In this document: piece after piece, positions 1,722-52,443 of the stretch
Layout of the letters: every line of letters starts with the position of its first letter
Position numbering within the stretch: position 1 is the first letter of the stretch
Assembly: GCA_016214605.1 (NCBI GenBank)
Contig: JACROD010000017.1
Coordinates: 1,183 to 65,182, forward strand
Reading direction: 5' to 3'
DNA length: 64,000 bases
Source: Candidatus Kaiserbacteria bacterium
Lineage (GTDB): Bacteria > Patescibacteriota > Minisyncoccia > Phycocordibacterales > UBA2100
Notes under the pieces: model-generated
Databases searched by the model: none
The model's input: the letters and a program-made list of their open reading frames with translations, nothing else
What the model was told of the DNA's origin: nothing
Translations under genes and position numbers: made by a program

Positions 1722-3773
<2,052 letters not shown>

Positions 3774-45756: not shown

Positions 45757-47403
45757 ATGGCAAAACAAGTTATTTTCGAAGAAGATGTGCGCTCAGCGCT
45801 CAAGCGCGGCGTCGATGTGATCGCCGCCGCCGTGCGTATCACGCTCGGGCCCCGTGGGCGCAATGTCGCTCTCGACAAGTCATGGGGCTCTCCCGTCATC
45901 ACCAATGATGGCGTCTCGATCGCCAAAGAGATCGTGCTTGCCGACAAGTTCGAGAACATGGGCGCTTCGATCGTCAAAGAGGTCGCCACCAAGACCAACG
46001 ACAAGGCCGGCGACGGTACGACCACAGCGGTCGTGCTGACCCAGGCGATCGTGCACGAAGGTCTCAAGCGCACGGCGCTTGGTGCCAATGCGGTCATGGT
46101 GCGTCGCGGTATTGAAGCTGCTGCCAAGGACGCCGTCGAGGAGCTCAAGAAAATGGCAAAGCCGATCAAAGGCAAACAAGACATCCGCCAAGTCGCGACC
46201 ATCTCGGCTGAATCCGAAGACCTTGGCAAGACGATAGCTGATATCGTCGACAAGGTCGGCAAAGACGGCGTGGTCACGGTCGAAGAATCCCAGTCGCTCG
46301 GCATCGAGTCTGATTTTGTGGAGGGCATGGAATTCGACAAAGGCTATGTCTCGGCGTACATGATCACCAATGCCGACCGCATGGAAGCCGAAGCCAAAGA
46401 CGCGCCGATCCTCATCACCGACAAAAAGATCTCGACCGTCAAAGACATTCTTCCGTTGCTCGAAAAGCTCGCCCAAAGCGGCAAGCGAGACCTCGTCATC
46501 ATCGCAGATGATGTGGACGGCGAGGCGCTCACGACGTTTGTCCTCAATAAACTGAAAGGCGTATTCAATGTACTCGCGATCAAAGCGCCGGGATATGGCG
46601 ACCGCAAGAAAGAAATGCTCGCCGATATTGCCGCGACCGTGGGTGCGCAGGTGATCTCCGAAGATGTGGGTCTCAAACTCGAAAGCGCGGATATATCCAT
46701 GCTCGGCAAGGCACAGCGCATCGTCGCGACCAAGGATTCGACTGTGATCGTCGGTGGCAAAGGCAAGAAATCCGATATCGATGCGCGCGTGTCTCAGCTC
46801 AAAGCACAGCTCGAAAACACCGATTCAAAGTTCGACAAAGAAAAGCTCCAGGAACGTGTGGCCAAGCTCACGGGTGGCGTTGCGGTCATTCGCGTCGGCG
46901 CTTCGACCGAGACCGAGATGAAGTATCTCAAAGACAAGATCGAGGATGCGGTCAACGCGACCAAGGCGGCGATCGCCGAGGGGATCGTAGCCGGCGGCGG
47001 CGCAGCACTTGCCAAGGTTGCCGATAAGCTCGGCAAAAAGATCGATGCCAAGGCACATGATGAGTATACGATCGGCTATCGCATCTTGCTCACGGCACTT
47101 TCTGCCCCTTTGCTCCAGATCGCCAAGAATGCCGGTCGCGAGGATGGTGCCGTAATTCTACGCGAGGTTATCAAGAAAGGCGGTGCTTTCGGCTACGATG
47201 CATCCGGCGTATCGGATGAGCCTAGAATCGTAGATATGATCGAAGCGGGCATCATTGATCCGGTCAAGGTGACACGCAGTGGTGTCGAGAATGCCGCTTC
47301 GGCGGCGGCGGTCTTGCTTACGACCGATGCGGCCGTAGCAGATATCCCCGAAGAAAAGAAAGACTTGCCGGGCGGAATGCCGGGGGGTATGGGCATGGAC
47401 TAA
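45757..47403 (+). CDS. groEL: Chaperonin GroEL
   Basis: 548 aa. [11 protein letters not shown] ... GPRGRNV ... DGTTTA ... ends with a [10 protein letters not shown] tail. Confidence 0.95.
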
Positions 47404-47486: not shown

Positions 47487-48308
47487 ATGAAAGAAAACAC
47501 ATTCGAGTCGATAAAAAGAATTGATGAAAACGGCAGGGAATATTGGTCTTCACGGGAGCTTGCCAAAGTACTGGAGTATGCAGACTACCGTAAATTCCTC
47601 AATGTTACAGACAAAGCAAAGGTGGCGTGTGAAAATAGTGGAGAAGTTATCCACAACCATTTTGTCCATACGGACGAAATGGTTCCGATTGGTTCAGGGG
47701 CCGAAAGGCCTGTAGACACGATCTTTCTTTCTCGGTATGCTTGCTATCTGATCGTCCAAAACTCCGATCCGACTAAAGTCGTCGTGGCAAAAGGTCAGAC
47801 GTACTTTGCGATCCAGACTCATCGACAGGAGAAGGCAGATAACTTGATCGAAGACCACAACCGCGTCTTCCTCCGTGAGGAGATGAAGAAGCACAACACG
47901 AGCCTGATCCAGACGGCGTCTCAGGCAGGTGTAGAAAGCTTCGCCATCTTTCAAAACGCTGGATATAAGGGCTTGTACGGGGGACGTACGATGCAAGATA
48001 TACACACAAAAAAGAAACTGAAGAAGTCACAGAAGATTCTTGATCACATGAACAGTGAAGAACTTGCCGCCAACCTCTTCCGAGCTACCCAAACAGACGC
48101 AAAGATCAAGCGTGAAAATATCAGAGGCCAAGGGAGTGCAAACCTAGCACACTACGAGGTCGGTCAGAAGGTTCGTGCCACGATTGCCAATCTGGGCGGA
48201 ACAATGCCGGAAGAACTCCCGACCCCTGATGCTATCGGTAAAGCACAAACGCGAATAAAGAAGGCGCAGGGAGTAAAGAAACTTGGAAAAGGGAAAGGTA
48301 CTCTGTAA
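47487..48308 (+). CDS. DinD-like (DNA-damage-inducible protein D / Bro-N-like) protein
   Basis: FESIKRIDENGREYWSSRELAKVLEY ... TRYACYLIVQNSDP ... AKGQTYFAIQT resembles E. coli DinD (... GQEFWSARELAPLLGY ... TRYACYLVVQNGDP ... AQTYFA). Confidence 0.55.
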   Translation: MKENTFESIKRIDENGREYWSSRELAKVLEYADYRKFLNVTDKAKVACENSGEVIHNHFVHTDEMVPIGSGAERPVDTIFLSRYACYLIVQNSDPTKVVVAKGQTYFAIQTHRQEKADNLIEDHNRVFLREEMKKHNTSLIQTASQAGVESFAIFQNAGYKGLYGGRTMQDIHTKKKLKKSQKILDHMNSEELAANLFRATQTDAKIKRENIRGQGSANLAHYEVGQKVRATIANLGGTMPEELPTPDAIGKAQTRIKKAQGVKKLGKGKGTL

Positions 48309-49155: not shown

Positions 49156-49204
49156 CGTGATATTCAACAAAGGTTATTTGGGATACATTGAGTCAATGCT
49201 AAAA

Positions 49205-49430
49205 TAGTCGCGGGATAGCGAGAGTTGGTATTTTTCGGCTTTTGCCGGAAACGGGAGTCGTGCGATAAGTCCGTCATCCGCCTTGTGCGGTGGATCGTCT
49301 GAAAGGATGAAGGTGCGGTAAAAAGCGACAACCGGCTCACGGGTGTACCAAGAGCCCATTCGGGGAGGTGAACGAAAGGCGAAGCGGGCGACGAAATCCC
49401 GCCTATCTTCAAGTAACCGGTTATCCCGAC
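49205..49430 (+). ncRNA. rnpB: Candidate strongly reduced RNase P RNA (rnpB-like) or other structured ncRNA
   Basis: Order-preserving matches to bacterial RNase P conserved regions. CR-I-like GATAAGTCCGTCATCC (cf. GGAAAGUCCGGGCUCC). P11/12-like GGATGAAGGTGCGGTAAAAAGCGACAACC (cf. GGGUGAAANGGUGCGGUAAGAGCGCACC). CAAGAGCCCATTCGGGG (cf. CAAGGCCAAAUAGGGG). AGGTGAACGAAAGGC (cf. AGAUGAAUGACUGUC). CR-V-like AACCGGTTATC (cf. AACCCGGCUUAUC). The P1 ends pair (GTCGCGGGATA / TATCCCGAC). The region is about 225 nt, far shorter than the usual 330-400 nt, and the P5-P9 region is nearly absent. Confidence 0.45.
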
Positions 49431-49458
49431 AAAAAACTCCCCGCTCGGGGAGTTTTTT
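49431..49458. terminator. Rho-independent terminator (bidirectional A-run/hairpin/T-run)
   Basis: aaaaaactcccc-gctc-ggggagtttttt, immediately after the candidate ncRNA. Confidence 0.7.
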
Positions 49459-49611
49459 GTCGTTGGACCACCAACCTAGGATTGCACCTGCTTCATATGG
49501 TCGTCTATTGACACCGATATAATGTGTATGGTATACTGAAACCAGCTGATGGATCAAGGGATTCCCTCGCGATTCCAGGACAGCTCATTTACAAACTACA
49601 GGAGACTGACC

Positions 49612-50319
49612 ATGCCGAAAGGTATGCTCGGGAATAGCGAAGTGCTCCGCCGCATCATGAGCGGACCGTTCGCCGACCTCGCCGTTAAACTCAATAGCGA
49701 AGACTCGGATGAGTGGGAGGCAGCCCTCGGAACTTTCTTGCGCAAGGAGCCCACGTGGGTGGGCGGCGCAGTTGCCAATGTCGAAAAGGTGAAACCCCCG
49801 ACCCTCGTCCTCATCCAGACGGCGACTCTCGGCAAGATCGAGGGCAAGGAGACCCGCAGTTGCTTCGCCGGCGCCATCTGGGGCTATCGGGACAGTGACA
49901 TAGACCGCTGGTTTCCCGCGCGACAGATCGCGCAAACGGCCGGTTCGGTCGGAGTCTATCAGCTTCAGAATCCGAAAGGCACCGCCTTCCGGGAAATGGC
50001 GCTGGCGGCTCTGAAAGCCTCACCCGATACCTCCAACGACCAACTCGCCAAGATGCTGAAGGAGCGCGGACTCACGTTCACGATCCAAGCCATCGAACGA
50101 CTGGTCGAAAGGCAGGAAAGCGGCGAGGACGTCGGTTTGCGTACCGATGGTTACGCGAACCTTGCGTTCGCTGAAGACGCGAACGGGAGCGTCTCGGTTC
50201 TCCGTGTCGGCCGCAGCGTCGACGGGTGGGGCGCCTACGTCTACCGGTTCGGCGACGGCGGCAGGTGGCGTGCCGAGTACCGTCTGCTTCTCCGCAACTC
50301 GGTCACTGCGACGCTCTGA
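49612..50319 (+). CDS. DGR target protein (variable protein) with the C-terminal variable repeat
   Basis: 235 aa. RBS AGGAG before the ATG at 49612. The last roughly 36 codons coincide with the VR, and the TR-encoded version is rich in AAC codons. There is no signal peptide. The N-terminal domain has unknown fold. Confidence 0.7.
   Translation: MPKGMLGNSEVLRRIMSGPFADLAVKLNSEDSDEWEAALGTFLRKEPTWVGGAVANVEKVKPPTLVLIQTATLGKIEGKETRSCFAGAIWGYRDSDIDRWFPARQIAQTAGSVGVYQLQNPKGTAFREMALAALKASPDTSNDQLAKMLKERGLTFTIQAIERLVERQESGEDVGLRTDGYANLAFAEDANGSVSVLRVGRSVDGWGAYVYRFGDGGRWRAEYRLLLRNSVTATL
50189..50295 (+). repeat. DGR variable repeat (VR), at the 3' end of the target gene
   Basis: 107 bp aligned without gaps to the TR at 50578-50684. 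All 17 mismatches fall at positions that are A in the TR (AAT->CGT, AAC->GGC, ACG->GCG, A->T and so on). The 3' 24 bp gccgagtaccgtctgcttctccgc is identical (IMH-like). Confidence 0.85.
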
Positions 50320-50577
50320 CACTTGGACCCTTGCATTGGTCCCGTACCCCGCACTTCTGGAAACGGAAGTCGCGGGGTATATTTATGCATGAACACGCTG
50401 GCATCTCCGGTCTGGCTTTTGTTTTGGACTTGAGGTGGCGAGGTTCGCACTTCTTCAAAAAAAGAAGAGAGTTGGTGCGCTGTGCTCGCGGGCTTGCGGC
50501 CCCACATCAGATACAGCCCGGAGAGTATTCTATGGGCAGTGGCCTTCGCGGGCGTCATGGATGGCACGGCGCACGAA

Positions 50578-50684
50578 GCGTCTCGGTTCTCAATGTCAAC
50601 CGCAACGACGACAGGTGGAACGCCAACGTCAACCGGTTCGACGACGGCAACAGGTGGAATGCCGAGTACCGTCTGCTTCTCCGC
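50578..50684 (+). repeat. DGR template repeat (TR), non-coding, between the target gene and avd/RT
   Basis: A-rich template with five AAC and one AAT codon-equivalents that are substituted in the VR. No ORF covers it in frame with a plausible start. Confidence 0.85.
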
Positions 50685-50708
50685 CACTCACTCCTTTCTC
50701 CCCTAGCC

Positions 50709-51050
50709 CTATGCTCGGGGAGTTTTCGTTTCCAAATACTCCTTCCAACCGACGAGCATTTTGCTCGCCTCTACGAGCGGAGCCGAGAGATGTGCATATT
50801 GTTTGTCTGTGACCATGTCGATTTCCCAGCCGACAAGCAAAAAGAACTTTACCAAATCAAGGCGAACCACGGCGGCTTCAATTGCCGTTACTTTTTGTTG
50901 CCCCGATAGATAGCTGGCGCGGAAGGCCCATTCGAGCGTGGCAAGAAACAACTCATCTATCTTCTCGCCGAGCGTGCGTCGTTGTGTTTTAGCGATGTGC
51001 GGCAGGAGCCCTTGCCAGAGGCCGTAGGAATCTTTCAATACCAACACCAC
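50709..51050 (-). CDS. avd: Avd-like accessory variability determinant (four-helix-bundle protein / 23S rRNA IVS protein family)
   Basis: 113 aa. LKDSYGLWQG (cf. FKDLxVWQKA), then helical segments ending ... ASKMLVGWKEYLE (cf. KMLNGLIKSL) typical of the bAvd family. It is divergent from the RT. Confidence 0.6.
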   Translation of the reverse strand: MVLVLKDSYGLWQGLLPHIAKTQRRTLGEKIDELFLATLEWAFRASYLSGQQKVTAIEAAVVRLDLVKFFLLVGWEIDMVTDKQYAHLSAPLVEASKMLVGWKEYLETKTPRA

Positions 51051-51102
51051 GGGGACGAATTTTGGTTGCTGAATCGTGCGGGGGGGGGGTACGCTTTGAA
51101 GA

Positions 51103-52158
51103 ATGAGCGGAATCCGGTTTATCCATACCTATGAGGATATCATTTCTGTAGAAAATTTGCTCGCGGCATGGCGGGAATTTTTGAGAGGCAAACGCAAGAA
51201 GGATGACGTGCGCAAGTTTCAATACCATCTCTCCGACAACATCCTCGCGCTCCATCGCGACCTTAAGGACAAAACATACCGCCATGGCGCATACGAAGCC
51301 TTCAAGATCAATGACCCCAAGCCGCGCGATATCCACAAGGCGACGGTGCGCGACCGCCTGCTCCATCACGCGATCTACCGACACCTCTATCCATTTTTCG
51401 ACCACACCTTCATCGCGGATTCGTATTCATGCAGAAGAGGGAAGGGTACACACAAGGCGATGGATCGTTTCAGGTCATTCGCATACCAAGTATCCAAGAA
51501 TCACACGCGCACGGTATGGGTCTTGAAATGCGATATCAAGAAGTTTTTCGCATCCATCGACCAAGCCACACTGTTTGCTATCGTCGCGCGATACATCCCC
51601 GACAAGGACATCAGCCGACTCATTGGCGAGATCATCGGGAGTTTCCAGACCCACACAACTATGCCTATAGGACGATCTGTGTGTATGGAAAAGAGAAAAG
51701 GATTACCGCTCGGTAATCTCACTTCGCAACTGCTCGTGAACATCTATATGAATGAGTTCGACCAGTTCGTGAAGCACAAACTCAAAGCAAGACACTATGT
51801 GCGTTATGCCGACGATTTCGTGGTCATGAGTACGGATCGAGTATGGCTTGAAGGACTGATCCCGCTTATCGCGCGATTCCTCGACGAGCGCCTTGCGCTT
51901 TCGCTCCATCCAAACAAGGTCTCAATCGCAACACTTGCATCCGGTGTCGATTTCTTGGGATGGGTGCATTTCTCCGATCATCGGGTACTACGAACGACGA
52001 CAAAGCGTCGAATGTTGCGGCGCACCGCAGACCTTGAAAAAGACGACCCCACCGTACGGTCTTATCTTGGGATGCTGAGCCATGGTAATGGGGAGAAATT
52101 ACGGGACATGGTAACGAAAACAGTTTTTGCTTTACGCGAACCGAGCAAGCTAAAGTGA
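51103..52158 (+). CDS. Diversity-generating retroelement reverse transcriptase
   Basis: 351 aa. RT motifs 1-7 with YADD (RYADDFVVM). DGR hallmark motif 4 GLPLGNLTSQLLVNIYMNEFD (I/LGxxxSQ in place of the QGxxxSP of other RTs). N-terminal ENLLAAWREFLRGKRKK. No maturase/X or endonuclease domain. Confidence 0.85.
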   Translation: MSGIRFIHTYEDIISVENLLAAWREFLRGKRKKDDVRKFQYHLSDNILALHRDLKDKTYRHGAYEAFKINDPKPRDIHKATVRDRLLHHAIYRHLYPFFDHTFIADSYSCRRGKGTHKAMDRFRSFAYQVSKNHTRTVWVLKCDIKKFFASIDQATLFAIVARYIPDKDISRLIGEIIGSFQTHTTMPIGRSVCMEKRKGLPLGNLTSQLLVNIYMNEFDQFVKHKLKARHYVRYADDFVVMSTDRVWLEGLIPLIARFLDERLALSLHPNKVSIATLASGVDFLGWVHFSDHRVLRTTTKRRMLRRTADLEKDDPTVRSYLGMLSHGNGEKLRDMVTKTVFALREPSKLK

Positions 52159-52266
52159 TAGAAAGCCACCTCTCACGAGAGGGTTGTGTATAGGAAATGT
52201 GGAACAATATGCAACCCATAAACAGATCAAGGACAAGAATGAAAAGGTAGGGTATAATCGTGCGAT

Positions 52267-52383
52267 ATGGCAAAAAGACCGAATCAGGATATTAAAAACA
52301 AGACCTCACGTTCACACAAGACGAAAAAGCGTCTTGCGGCGAAGGTTGCAATGAAAGCTGCACGTAAACCGAAACAAAAATAA
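52267..52383 (+). CDS. Very small basic protein (38 aa), possibly ribosome-associated; speculative
   Basis: MAKRPNQDIKNKTSRSHKTKKRLAAKVAMKAARKPKQK. TATAAT lies 8 nt upstream of the ATG, suggesting a leaderless or short-leader mRNA. It is followed by a strong terminator. Confidence 0.3.
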   Translation: MAKRPNQDIKNKTSRSHKTKKRLAAKVAMKAARKPKQK

Positions 52384-52402
52384 GATTTGGGTGTTTTTAT
52401 AA

Positions 52403-52443
52403 AGCAGGCCGACGCGCCTCAGGCGCGTCGGCCTGCTTTTTTG
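52403..52443 (+). terminator. Rho-independent terminator
   Basis: agcaggccgacgcgcc-tcag-gcgcgtcggcctgc followed by tttttt. A 16-bp perfect stem. Confidence 0.8.

Follow-up and report, generated by a model that had tools for sequence, protein, structure and literature searches.

The DGR in the window (the whole 64,000-nt stretch of DNA analysed here, from a Candidatus Kaiserbacteria genome) is a typical representative of the DGR clade found in Patescibacteria (CPR), with the fixed order of target gene and variable repeat (VR), template repeat (TR), inverted avd and reverse transcriptase (RT). The reading that we prefer, with a probability of about 0.6, is that this CPR-clade B3 DGR is transcribed as separate units, and that its TR RNA is self-contained and resembles a circular permutation of the Bordetella DGR RNA. 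The inversion of avd would then create no antisense conflict, since the locus seems to consist of several separate units of transcription.

The TR (50577-50689) and the VR (50188-50300), both on the plus strand and 113 nt long, differ at 17 positions, 16 of which are TR adenines. These 16 mismatches all fall on codon positions 1 or 2 of the target ORF, and the remaining one (C/A at 50685/50296) lies near the 3′ end. Two DGR hallmarks are thus present, namely a TR/VR pair with nearly all of its differences at TR adenines and a VR at the 3′ end of a coding target gene. The target gene (49612-50319, plus strand, 235 aa) had no match in Pfam or NCBIfam, and a promoter scan placed a strong sigma-70-like site upstream of it at 49508-49537. 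The RT (51103-52158, plus strand, 351 aa) is 100% identical to a Candidatus Kaiserbacteria protein. It matches RVT_1 (E = 3e-23), and its translation contains LGNLTSQ and YADD, which fit the signature of DGR-type RTs (an RVT_1 domain, the [LIV]GxxxSQ motif and YxDD). Its best NCBIfam match, a related group II intron RT, stayed under that model's cut-off.

[quoted passage not shown] The ORF, at 50709-51050 (113 aa, GTG start), covers the Pfam bAvd and NCBIfam DivGenRetAVD profiles nearly fully, in both cases under the cut-off (bAvd, E = 5e-6 and 27 bits against a 40-bit cut-off; DivGenRetAVD, E = 1.8e-8), and bAvd was matched by all 38 aligned avd orthologues (best E = 2.5e-15). A single-sequence AF2 model contains four helices (pLDDT 73), in line with the four-helix bundle of the bAvd family, and its best fold matches in the PDB were the Avd-like IVP protein 2rld and Bordetella Avd (4dwl, 8ube), all of them weak (E = 0.05-0.5, TM about 0.55-0.6). 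PDB sequence searches, whether started from Avd alone or from a profile of 38 sequences, brought no useful match. The 64 kb window holds no plus-strand avd elsewhere, and 50709-51050 is its sole Avd-like ORF.

The first-pass annotation had also placed a plus-strand TR, an avd on the opposite strand and a plus-strand RT in that order, all of which are where it put them, and it had rightly contrasted them with the Bordetella-type order avd-TR-RT, in which all elements are co-directional. Its description of the layout as unusual did not survive comparison. The TR-(avd)-RT core order with avd on the reverse strand, as found in the window, is the published architecture B3, which accounts for 90% of CPR DGRs (Wu et al. 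2018, NAR 46:11) in a set that derives from Paul et al. 2017, and a CPR-restricted DGR clade 2 has been described by Roux et al. 2021. RT homologues at E<1e-20 number at least 8000. We carried out the gene-order comparison that the annotation had called for with 80 related loci, nearly all from Patescibacteria MAGs, in which RTs share 58-69% and avd genes 27-46% identity. avd was inverted directly upstream of the RT in 73/73 loci with enough upstream DNA, and the TR lay on the RT strand in 55/55 loci with a detectable TR. The distance from the TR end to the avd stop had a median of 11 nt (range -9 to +25 nt). Gene order by itself is therefore not new, being the published standard for CPR DGRs.

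Immediately after the TR, the plus strand carries a hairpin at 50698-50722 (arms CTCCCCTAGC/GCTCGGGGAG; nine pairs, one mismatch) followed by TTTTCGTTT at 50723-50731, so that a GC-rich hairpin stands directly before a U-run, as in an intrinsic terminator. This hairpin at the TR/avd junction had been noticed before, with a range (50698-50726) that takes in the first four Ts. The hairpin loop contains the avd stop codon (50709-50711), and the last ~7 avd codons are encoded by the complement of the hairpin 3′ arm and the U-tract. The arrangement is conserved: the hairpin is followed at once by a T-run in 47/52 loci, the U-tract is maintained among relatives as GAGTTTTGTTTT, and the hairpin covaries, with 93.2% of cells paired (32-71% in slid controls) and 32 compensatory cells (3-13 in slid controls). 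In the window the U-tract is interrupted (TTTTCGTTT).

Constraint on the nucleotide sequence ends at the same place. Across 71 avd genes, third codon positions have an entropy of about 1.8-2.0 bits, and this includes the codons of invariant Gly, Ala and Pro. The one exception is the last ~6 codons, complementary to the U-tract, where entropy drops to 0.7-1.2. Synonymous sites in avd are unconstrained apart from these codons, and there is therefore no plus-strand RNA element inside avd. Plus-strand sequence constraint stops at the U-tract, and there is no nucleotide-level conservation beyond it. The hairpin and U-tract may thus form an intrinsic-terminator-like 3′ end of the TR RNA, as predicted from sequence; to our knowledge, no study has characterised intrinsic termination in CPR bacteria. 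The first-pass annotation had left two alternatives, a short DGR RNA that ends near 50700 or an avd whose expression is coupled or antagonistic to TR RNA production. The conserved hairpin and U-tract and the stop of constraint favour the short RNA, and for coupling or antagonism through antisense we found no support beyond the ~25-40 nt by which the two 3′ ends overlap.

The second conserved RNA element lies on the other side of the TR. A structured domain at 50475-50574 (plus strand) abuts the TR and consists of P1 (50475-86/50563-74, 12 bp), P2 (50490-93/50499-502), the single-stranded J2/3 (50503-15, AAAUACGAUACA) and P3 (50516-19/50534-37). The 20 pairs of the three helices are 97.0% paired across relatives (33-50% in slid controls) and show 281 compensatory cells (23-72 in slid controls), values that were reached in 0/500 shuffles. 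P1 alone is 96.6% paired, with compensatory changes at 10 of its pairs. A covariance model matched the window at 50457-50586 with 95.6 bits and gave exactly one plus-strand match per locus in 67 loci and the window, including 16 loci outside the seed, with no further match in 632 kb. TR/VR homology begins a median of 3 nt after the P1 3′ strand, with a P1-to-TR spacing of -1 to +10 nt. In the DGR region Rfam gave no match, whether the whole window was scanned at the gathering threshold or 50300-51110 alone at E<=10. When the transcript predicted for the window was folded as a single sequence, the result (z = -0.34) was uninformative, as expected. A pairing of the P3 loop GAGAGU with ACUCUC at the TR end was considered and dropped, as loci with insertions show an extended hairpin of the loop's own.

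Upstream of this domain the window is less typical. Relatives usually have two distal hairpins, of which the window lacks the first; its distal 5′ hairpin (CATCTC...GAGGTG, 50402-50438, plus strand), recognised by eye, contains a degenerate version of the 12-nt loop that is conserved in the family. Relatives also share TTTG.TA.AAT about 125-135 nt upstream of the leader, a candidate -10 box for the TR RNA. The corresponding tentative box in the window (TATATT, 50378-50383, plus strand) must be called weak, since a consensus promoter scan of 50320-50577 found none and so did not pick it up. Between the VR/IMH and this point, the plus-strand sequence can be read as inverted repeats, GGACC/GGTCC at 50325-50342 and a GC-rich target-gene hairpin at 50345-50379; in relatives, the region downstream of the VR/IMH holds a hairpin and a T-run that merge into the TR-RNA promoter.

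Directly 5′ of P1 lies a leader (AAAAAAAGAAGAGAGTTG, 50457-50474, plus strand), proposed here as a primer-like strand, which is complementary to a tail 3′ of the TR (CCACTCACTCCTTT, 50684-50697, plus strand). This tail, the putative partner of the leader in a helix P0, overlaps the last 6 nt of the TR (IMH* region). Column-wise support for the pairing is modest (60% paired, against 40-52% in slid controls). Column-based covariation is blurred by indels here, and we therefore relied on a duplex-energy test, in which cognate leader-tail pairs averaged -6.1 kcal/mol and non-cognate pairs -4.1 kcal/mol (permutation p<0.0002, n = 44). Relatedness can affect this test too: a nonsense control pairing also reached p=0.003, with a weaker effect. 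Individual compensatory examples were also found. The local hairpin CTTCA-AAAAA-TGAAG, tried as another partner for the leader, had no cognate advantage (p=0.15). We propose that the leader pairs with the tail. Priming could then take place from the 2′-OH of G50474, where the leader meets P1, and G50683 would be the template base copied first.

Taken together, the preferred reading divides the locus as follows. The target gene would have its own promoter and hairpin. The TR RNA would be a self-contained non-coding RNA of roughly 340 nt with its own promoter, starting at about 50390, carrying the structured domain directly 5′ of the TR, and ending at about 50731 at the hairpin and U-tract that overlap the last avd codons; both transcript ends are predictions. 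avd and the RT would be transcribed divergently from a control region of ~50 nt with a poly-G tract. Within the TR RNA, the elements of the Bordetella spacer would have moved 5′ of the TR in the same order. The leader would act as the primer-like strand and be followed by the 12-nt strand that pairs just upstream of the TR, P1 being the counterpart of the 'cPRT stop' duplex. Then would come P2 as the small stem-loop, a single-stranded AA-ACGNUACA in place of the A-minor adenosines and thumb ring, and P3 as the larger, RT-binding stem-loop. Only the hairpin just after the TR, likened to the Avd-binding stem-loop, would stay 3′ and double as terminator. With these elements in the same order 5′ of the TR and the hairpin alone 3′ of it, the RNA looks circularly permuted, and with a primer strand, a stop-duplex strand and RT-contacting elements all before the template, priming would be expected from the 5′ leader. 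We infer both the permutation and the implied 5′ priming from sequence comparison. In the literature that we searched, we found no answer to how a DGR RNA works with an inverted avd in the position of the spacer.

The pattern AA.ACG.UACA, right after the small stem-loop, is common to the CPR family and Bordetella at 9/12 positions. In the BPP-1 genome (42.5 kb), where 0.05 occurrences would be expected, it is found a single time, precisely at Sp80-90, although this match was noticed post hoc. By analogy, P1, P2 and J2/3 may be functionally equivalent to the Bordetella elements. A quoted statement in the literature differs from the partner that we propose for P1, and we counted it against the preferred reading.

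We consider it quite improbable that a long DGR RNA extends from the TR across all of avd, antisense to it, in the direction of the RT, so that TR RNA production and the expression of avd would be coupled or antagonistic. Bordetella requires about 140 nt of RNA beyond the 3′ end of the TR (TR + 140-nt spacer; cryo-EM; Handa et al. bioRxiv 10.1101/2023.10.23.563531), some overlap of the TR RNA with the avd mRNA, at the hairpin at least, is unavoidable, and the minus strand has no U-tract after the hairpin, so that avd transcripts may read into the TR in antisense. This reading is countered, however, by the terminator-like element conserved directly after the TR, by the free synonymous sites of avd, which leave no conserved plus-strand element there, and by the candidate equivalents of the Bordetella spacer 5′ of the TR. 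It is also unlikely, in our view, that the hairpin is only an Avd-binding stem-loop and not a terminator, with the stop-duplex and priming partners located 3′ of the TR, as they are in Bordetella, and with a 5′ domain that is unrelated and serves as a leader or regulatory RNA. Putative Avd-binding stem-loops just 3′ of the TR, together with upstream/downstream duplexes, have been described in 207/278 avd-containing DGRs, CPR included (Handa et al. bioRxiv 10.1101/2023.10.23.563531), and speak for it, but the partner with which the P1 3′ strand strongly covaries lies further upstream, not downstream, the U-tract is itself conserved, and nucleotide-level conservation goes no further than that tract.

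We likewise give only a slim chance to an inversion of avd without functional meaning, a rearrangement frozen in the CPR DGR ancestor with the 5′ block conserved by common descent. Simple inheritance also predicts a layout common to all relatives, but the spacings from TR end to avd stop and from P1 to TR have stayed tight despite the divergence of RT and avd, and pairing in the helices has been preserved across many compensatory changes, which calls for selection at the level of RNA structure.

Simple-sequence-repeat (contingency) switches are located in promoters or 5′ coding regions, for example in Neisseria and Haemophilus. The avd/RT control region has a repeat of this hypermutable type in such a position, a G10 tract at 51080-51089 (plus strand) followed by the TAnnnT hexamer TACGCT at 51090-95, 7 nt before the RT ATG. 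A G>=6 tract is present in 66/74 relatives and other simple repeats occupy the same place in 5, and the remaining 529 kb contain only 2 runs of G/C>=8; protein P0117 belongs to the variant without a tract. Tract length ranges from G6 to G14 between species, and no length differences were seen among near-identical contigs encoding the same RT (G10 in 5 contigs, G11 in 4). The frame from the poly-G tract is open into the RT in 25/66 loci, about the one third expected by chance, which makes this frame test uninformative. We put forward only tentatively, and rate as less likely than not, the wider proposal that CPR DGRs combine a permuted RNA with retron-like 5′-leader priming, an Avd-binding hairpin that serves as terminator in the last avd codons, and a conserved hypermutable repeat that switches the diversification machinery on and off.

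Neither Rfam 15 nor the literature searched yielded a description of the 5′ RNA domain, the terminator-like hairpin or the poly-G tract, all of them features of the whole family; the RT-1 to RT-19 motifs of Weinberg et al. 2017 lay outside this comparison. A self-contained TR RNA with a 5′ scaffold would provide a specific RNA that can be put to the test in the largest natural clade of DGRs, and a compact alternative design for engineered DGR mutagenesis. It also suggests that the three-dimensional arrangement of RT, Avd and RNA in the Bordetella cryo-EM structure could have been kept despite a different connectivity. If the poly-G tract does switch, bacteria with small genomes would gate hypermutation stochastically.

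Among known systems, the B3 DGRs of CPR bacteria are the closest to the window locus, which has the same gene order, orientation and host lineage (Patescibacteria) without any gene-order difference, and whose RT family has thousands of members in Patescibacteria. Contingency switches share with the window a long homopolymer between divergent genes, directly upstream of a -10-like hexamer, and with the relatives the occurrence of other repeat types at the same place in some of them; they differ in that no length polymorphism was seen among near-identical contigs. The msr-msd RNA of retrons resembles the proposed TR RNA in topology only, with a structured 5′ part followed by the template and with ends joined by a terminal duplex, so that an adjacent 2′-OH could prime. 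This is an analogy and not membership, since retrons have an RT of another clade and neither a TR/VR pair nor Avd.

The DGR of BPP-1 (architecture B1) shares with the window an RT with Avd, A-specific TR-to-VR differences, a hairpin right after the TR and a 12-nt strand that pairs with a segment just 5′ of the TR, followed in the same order by a small stem-loop, AA-ACGNUACA and a larger stem-loop. In BPP-1, avd is co-directional and upstream of the TR and the scaffold is 3′ of the TR, whereas in the window the scaffold is 5′ of it: a duplex like the 'cPRT stop', then a stem-loop, adenosines and a single-stranded ring all precede the TR, and only the hairpin and U-tract follow it as conserved structured RNA on the TR strand before the RT. 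The Bordetella primer is A56, whereas a G at the leader/P1 junction is predicted for the window, and the CPR RNAs carry one or two extra distal hairpins relative to the Bordetella RNA.

The complete diversity-generating retroelement (DGR) occupies 49.5–52.2 kb of the window. On the plus strand, a target open reading frame (ORF; 49612–50319) carries the 113-nt variable repeat (VR; 50188–50300) at its 3′ end, and 276 nt further along this strand is the template repeat (TR; 50577–50689, also 113 nt). The avd candidate, a 113-codon ORF on the minus strand (50709–51050), ends 19 nt past the TR and is separated by a 52-nt gap from the plus-strand reverse transcriptase gene (RT; 51103–52158), which has an RVT_1 match (E = 3e-23) and the motifs LGNLTSQ and YADD. 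TR and VR differ at 17 positions over 113 nt; sixteen of the mismatches fall at TR adenines, always in codon position 1 or 2 of the target frame, and the seventeenth is a C/A mismatch close to the 3′ end (50685/50296). The first-pass annotation had placed an inverted avd between TR and RT, which is confirmed by these coordinates and by matches to Pfam bAvd (E = 5e-6) and NCBIfam DivGenRetAVD (E = 1.8e-8), each covering nearly the full profile and each under its curated cut-off. All 38 aligned avd orthologues match bAvd (best E = 2.5e-15). As to whether the ORF might be something other than avd, or a plus-strand avd might lie elsewhere, the product is Avd-like with a four-helix single-sequence AlphaFold model, whose best PDB fold matches, all weak (E 0.05–0.5, TM 0.55–0.6), are to Bordetella Avd (4dwl and 8ube) and to 2rld, a protein that is itself Avd-like; a search of the 64 kb window, both strands included, with a clade-specific Avd profile found no second such ORF.

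Several other features neighbour the DGR. A protein with a Bro-N domain, which is frequent among phage and mobile-element proteins, is encoded 1.3 kb upstream (47487–48308), adjoining groEL (45757–47403). A non-coding stretch of ~270 nt (within 49178–49475) separates a phosphoribosyltransferase gene from the target gene and contains a promoter-like site (49178–49205) and a strong terminator (AAAAAACTCCCCGCTCGGGGAGTTTTTT, 49447–49475) with a stem similar to that of the hairpin that follows the TR. The stretch may be an unclassified small RNA, and its Rfam matches at E ≤ 5 were at chance level only. Just downstream of the RT (52230–52435) is a strongly basic 38-aa ORF (MAKRPNQDIKNKTSRSHKTKKRLAAKVAMKAARKPKQK) with its own promoter-like site (52230–52258) and terminator (52420–52435), which showed no Avd likeness in the search of the window for Avd-like ORFs.

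The layout had been called unusual, a description that does not survive comparison with related DGRs. A protein from a Candidatus Kaiserbacteria bacterium is 100% identical to the window RT, which has at least 8000 database matches at E < 1e-20. Scanning one genome per species yielded 80 related loci (RT identity 58–69%), nearly all with Patescibacteria MAG labels; DGR clade 2 is confined to Patescibacteria (Roux et al., 2021). An avd homologue lies directly upstream of the RT on the opposite strand in 73/73 loci with at least ~200 nt of upstream DNA, the remaining 7 of the 80 being cut by a contig end, and the TR is on the RT strand in all 55 loci with a detectable A-biased TR/VR pair. In these 55, the TR ends a median of 11 nt from the avd stop (range −9 to +25), with the VR a median of 338 nt upstream. 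Gene order and orientation are the same throughout the comparable loci. The window layout is ordinary and lineage-typical because this arrangement, common to its relatives, is the published architecture B3 (Wu et al., 2018; PMC5758913), TR-(avd)-RT, in which avd is encoded in reverse, and the window DGR is a further member of a well-populated class. Some relatives carry extra A-biased repeat copies downstream of the RT (L011, 5009–5933; L033, 5678–5786; L053, 6470–6604; L068, 2461–2565); those in L011 form a second TR/VR pair, and the others are remote VRs belonging to second target genes. The specialist interest of this DGR class lies in its probable short TR RNA, with a proposed scaffold 5′ of the template, and in a repeat tract, and not in the gene order.

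With avd inverted, a TR transcript reaching the RT would be antisense to avd, and it had been proposed either that the DGR RNA is short, ending near 50700, or that avd expression is coupled or antagonistic to TR RNA production. The hairpin reported at the TR/avd junction is present (50698–50722, CTCCCCTAGC-cctat-GCTCGGGGAG, then TTTTCGTTT) and holds the avd stop codon (50709–50711) within its loop. Its consensus, aaCTCTCTTCATTT-CTCYCC...GGRGAG-TTTTGTTTTG, is the most conserved feature 3′ of the TR, and 47/52 loci have a stable hairpin directly followed by a T-run. Of the cells for the six outer pairs, 93.2% are paired (32–71% with a slid partner), with 32 compensatory cells against 3–13 in slid controls. 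It looks like a one-way plus-strand terminator, because the minus strand has no U-run after the hairpin. When 71 avd genes are aligned by codon, the entropy of third positions is ~1.8–2.0 bits throughout, also where a codon specifies an invariant Gly, Ala or Pro, and falls to 0.7–1.2 solely over the final ~6 codons, which are complementary to the U-tract. Plus-strand nucleotide constraint in this alignment therefore ends at the U-tract, and by this measure avd hides no spacer-like RNA element.

TR RNA probably does not run antisense through avd, because the hairpin is conserved, avd synonymous sites are free and the conserved RNA lies 5′ of the TR. These three comparative lines favour the short RNA and speak against antisense passage, except for an overlap at the 3′ ends: since the hairpin loop contains the avd stop, and the final ~7 avd codons are encoded opposite the hairpin 3′ arm and U-tract, TR RNA and avd mRNA are predicted to share ~25–40 nt. 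The hairpin lacks a minus-strand U-run, so avd transcripts might in turn read antisense into the TR. It is possible that such convergent transcription has effects, although the sequences give no pointer to them.

The conserved RNA was found by aligning the VR-to-TR interval of 54 loci. A non-coding block begins ~230 nt before the TR with a T-rich run and a TTTG.TA.AAT box that resembles an extended −10 promoter. One or two hairpins with a common 12-nt loop (CGRYYACGGYTT) come next (~100–230 nt upstream of the TR in relatives; for example, 3160–3300 in locus L036), followed by an A-rich leader (AAAAAATGAAGATACTTG) and a three-helix domain reaching up to the TR. Most relatives have two distal hairpins, in what would be the opening part of the TR RNA, with the shared loop motif CGGTTACGGCTT / CGACCACGGTTT; the window and loci L020, L052, L072 and L080 have one, which is degenerate in the window (50402–50438, plus strand). 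RNAalifold (52 sequences) folds the domain into a 12-bp closing helix (P1) and helices P2 and P3, with 97.0% of cells paired (33–50% in slid controls), 281 compensatory cells (23–72 in slid controls) and double changes at 18/20 pairs; none of 500 shuffles equalled these values. A covariance model built from this alignment matches 67 loci, 16 of them outside the seed, and the window (50457–50586, 95.6 bits), always once per locus, on the RT strand and upstream of the TR, with no further match in 632 kb. The P1 3′ strand ends a median of 3 nt before TR/VR homology starts. In the window, all on the plus strand, the leader spans 50457–50474, P1 50475–50486/50563–50574, P2 50490–50493/50499–50502, the single-stranded J2/3 50503–50515, and P3 50516–50519/50534–50537. 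Rfam 15 has no match to the region 5′ of the TR even at E ≤ 10. The position of the TR-RNA promoter in the window is uncertain: a scan found no consensus site, and TATATT (50378–50383) is a candidate element.

The leader has a complement in the tail, which runs from the TR end to the hairpin (AAAUGAAGA with UCUUCAUUU in the consensus); UUG and the CAA of the TR-terminal CGCAAC are likewise complementary. Compensatory leader/tail combinations occur in L008 (AUAAAGU/ACUUUAU), L053 (GUGAAGC/GCUUCAU), L019 (AUAUAGAAUCG/CGAUUCUCUAU) and L049 (AUUUAGUU/AACUAAAU). Cognate duplexes average −6.1 kcal/mol against −4.1 for non-cognate ones (permutation p < 0.0002, n = 44), a test in which a nonsense control pairing also had an effect, though a smaller one (p = 0.003); counting columns in a fixed register gives modest values (60% paired vs. 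40–52%). A rival local hairpin as the leader's partner showed no cognate advantage (p = 0.15). In the window, 11/14 positions of leader 50461–50474 can pair with tail 50684–50697; in this register the branch would form at G50474 and copying of the template would start from G50683, which lies 5′ of the only non-adenine TR/VR mismatch (50685). A role for the leader as primer strand is plausible, at about even odds.

Between avd and RT lies a G10 tract (51080–51089), which in the 64 kb window is the sole G/C run of at least 8; TACGCT comes next, with the RT ATG 7 nt further on. Runs of at least six G occupy this site in 66/74 related loci (G6–G14; at least 8 in 64 of the 66), another simple repeat in five ((GGCT)7–10 in three, (GATTGCT)11 and (GT)17 in one each), and the tract is interrupted or missing in three; the remaining 529 kb contain two G/C runs of at least 8. 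A TAnnnT hexamer that recurs past the tract, ~7 nt before the ATG, suggests the −10 box of a short-leader RT mRNA, and on the avd strand the tract sits a few nt upstream of the conserved avd start. The swap of one hypermutable tract for others at the same site is a signature of contingency switches, and we hypothesize that the tract may act as a phase-variation switch for the DGR machinery. Near-identical contigs showed no tract-length differences (G10 in 5 contigs, G11 in 4), ~1/3 of loci, the chance level, have an RT frame that stays open across the tract, and our literature search turned up no paper that connects such repeats to DGRs. The tract is wholly absent from a sub-lineage (L004 and L086–L094, RT protein P0117) in which the RT is called with an N-terminal extension overlapping avd, and which could serve as a natural “locked” comparison for this hypothesis.

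The TR RNA of this Patescibacteria (CPR) clade can be compared with that of Bordetella phage BPP-1, in which an 11-nt avd segment just upstream of the TR is one “cPRT stop” strand, and the spacer (Sp) 3′ of the TR contains, in order, an Avd-binding stem-loop (Sp3–33), the primer strand (Sp53–56, with the 2′-OH of A56 priming), the second stop strand (Sp59–70), a small stem-loop (Sp71–78), adenosines (Sp79–81), a single-stranded thumb ring (Sp82–94) and the RT-binding stem-loop (Sp95–139) (Handa et al., bioRxiv 10.1101/2023.10.23.563531). BPP-1 Sp49–91 reads GGUGGUCA-GC-CGGUUCUGUCCU-GCUUCGGC-GAACACGUUACAC, and the CPR consensus runs from the leader (...GAUACUUG) through the 12-nt P1 5′ strand, hairpin P2 and AAAUACGAUACAG to hairpin P3. 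The order of elements is alike, each RNA has a 12-nt stop strand whose partner is the segment immediately 5′ of the TR, and the leader's polarity fits priming as in Bordetella, its 3′ end facing the TR body with the stop strand next. After the small hairpin both share AA.ACG.UACA (9/12 positions), a match noticed post hoc; the pattern has a single occurrence in the BPP-1 genome (42.5 kb; at Sp80–90; 0.05 expected) and in CPR loci is confined to J2/3. The primer/stop/ring block is attached 3′ of the TR in Bordetella, whereas in the CPR clade it precedes the TR and only the post-TR hairpin with its U-tract remains 3′; the Bordetella RNA has nothing that corresponds to the distal hairpins. The likely answer to the antisense question would be a short TR RNA, complete in itself, whose scaffold lies 5′ of the template. 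We infer that the CPR RNA is a circular permutation of the Bordetella design, in which nothing would be required downstream of the hairpin, so that an inverted avd can occupy that place.
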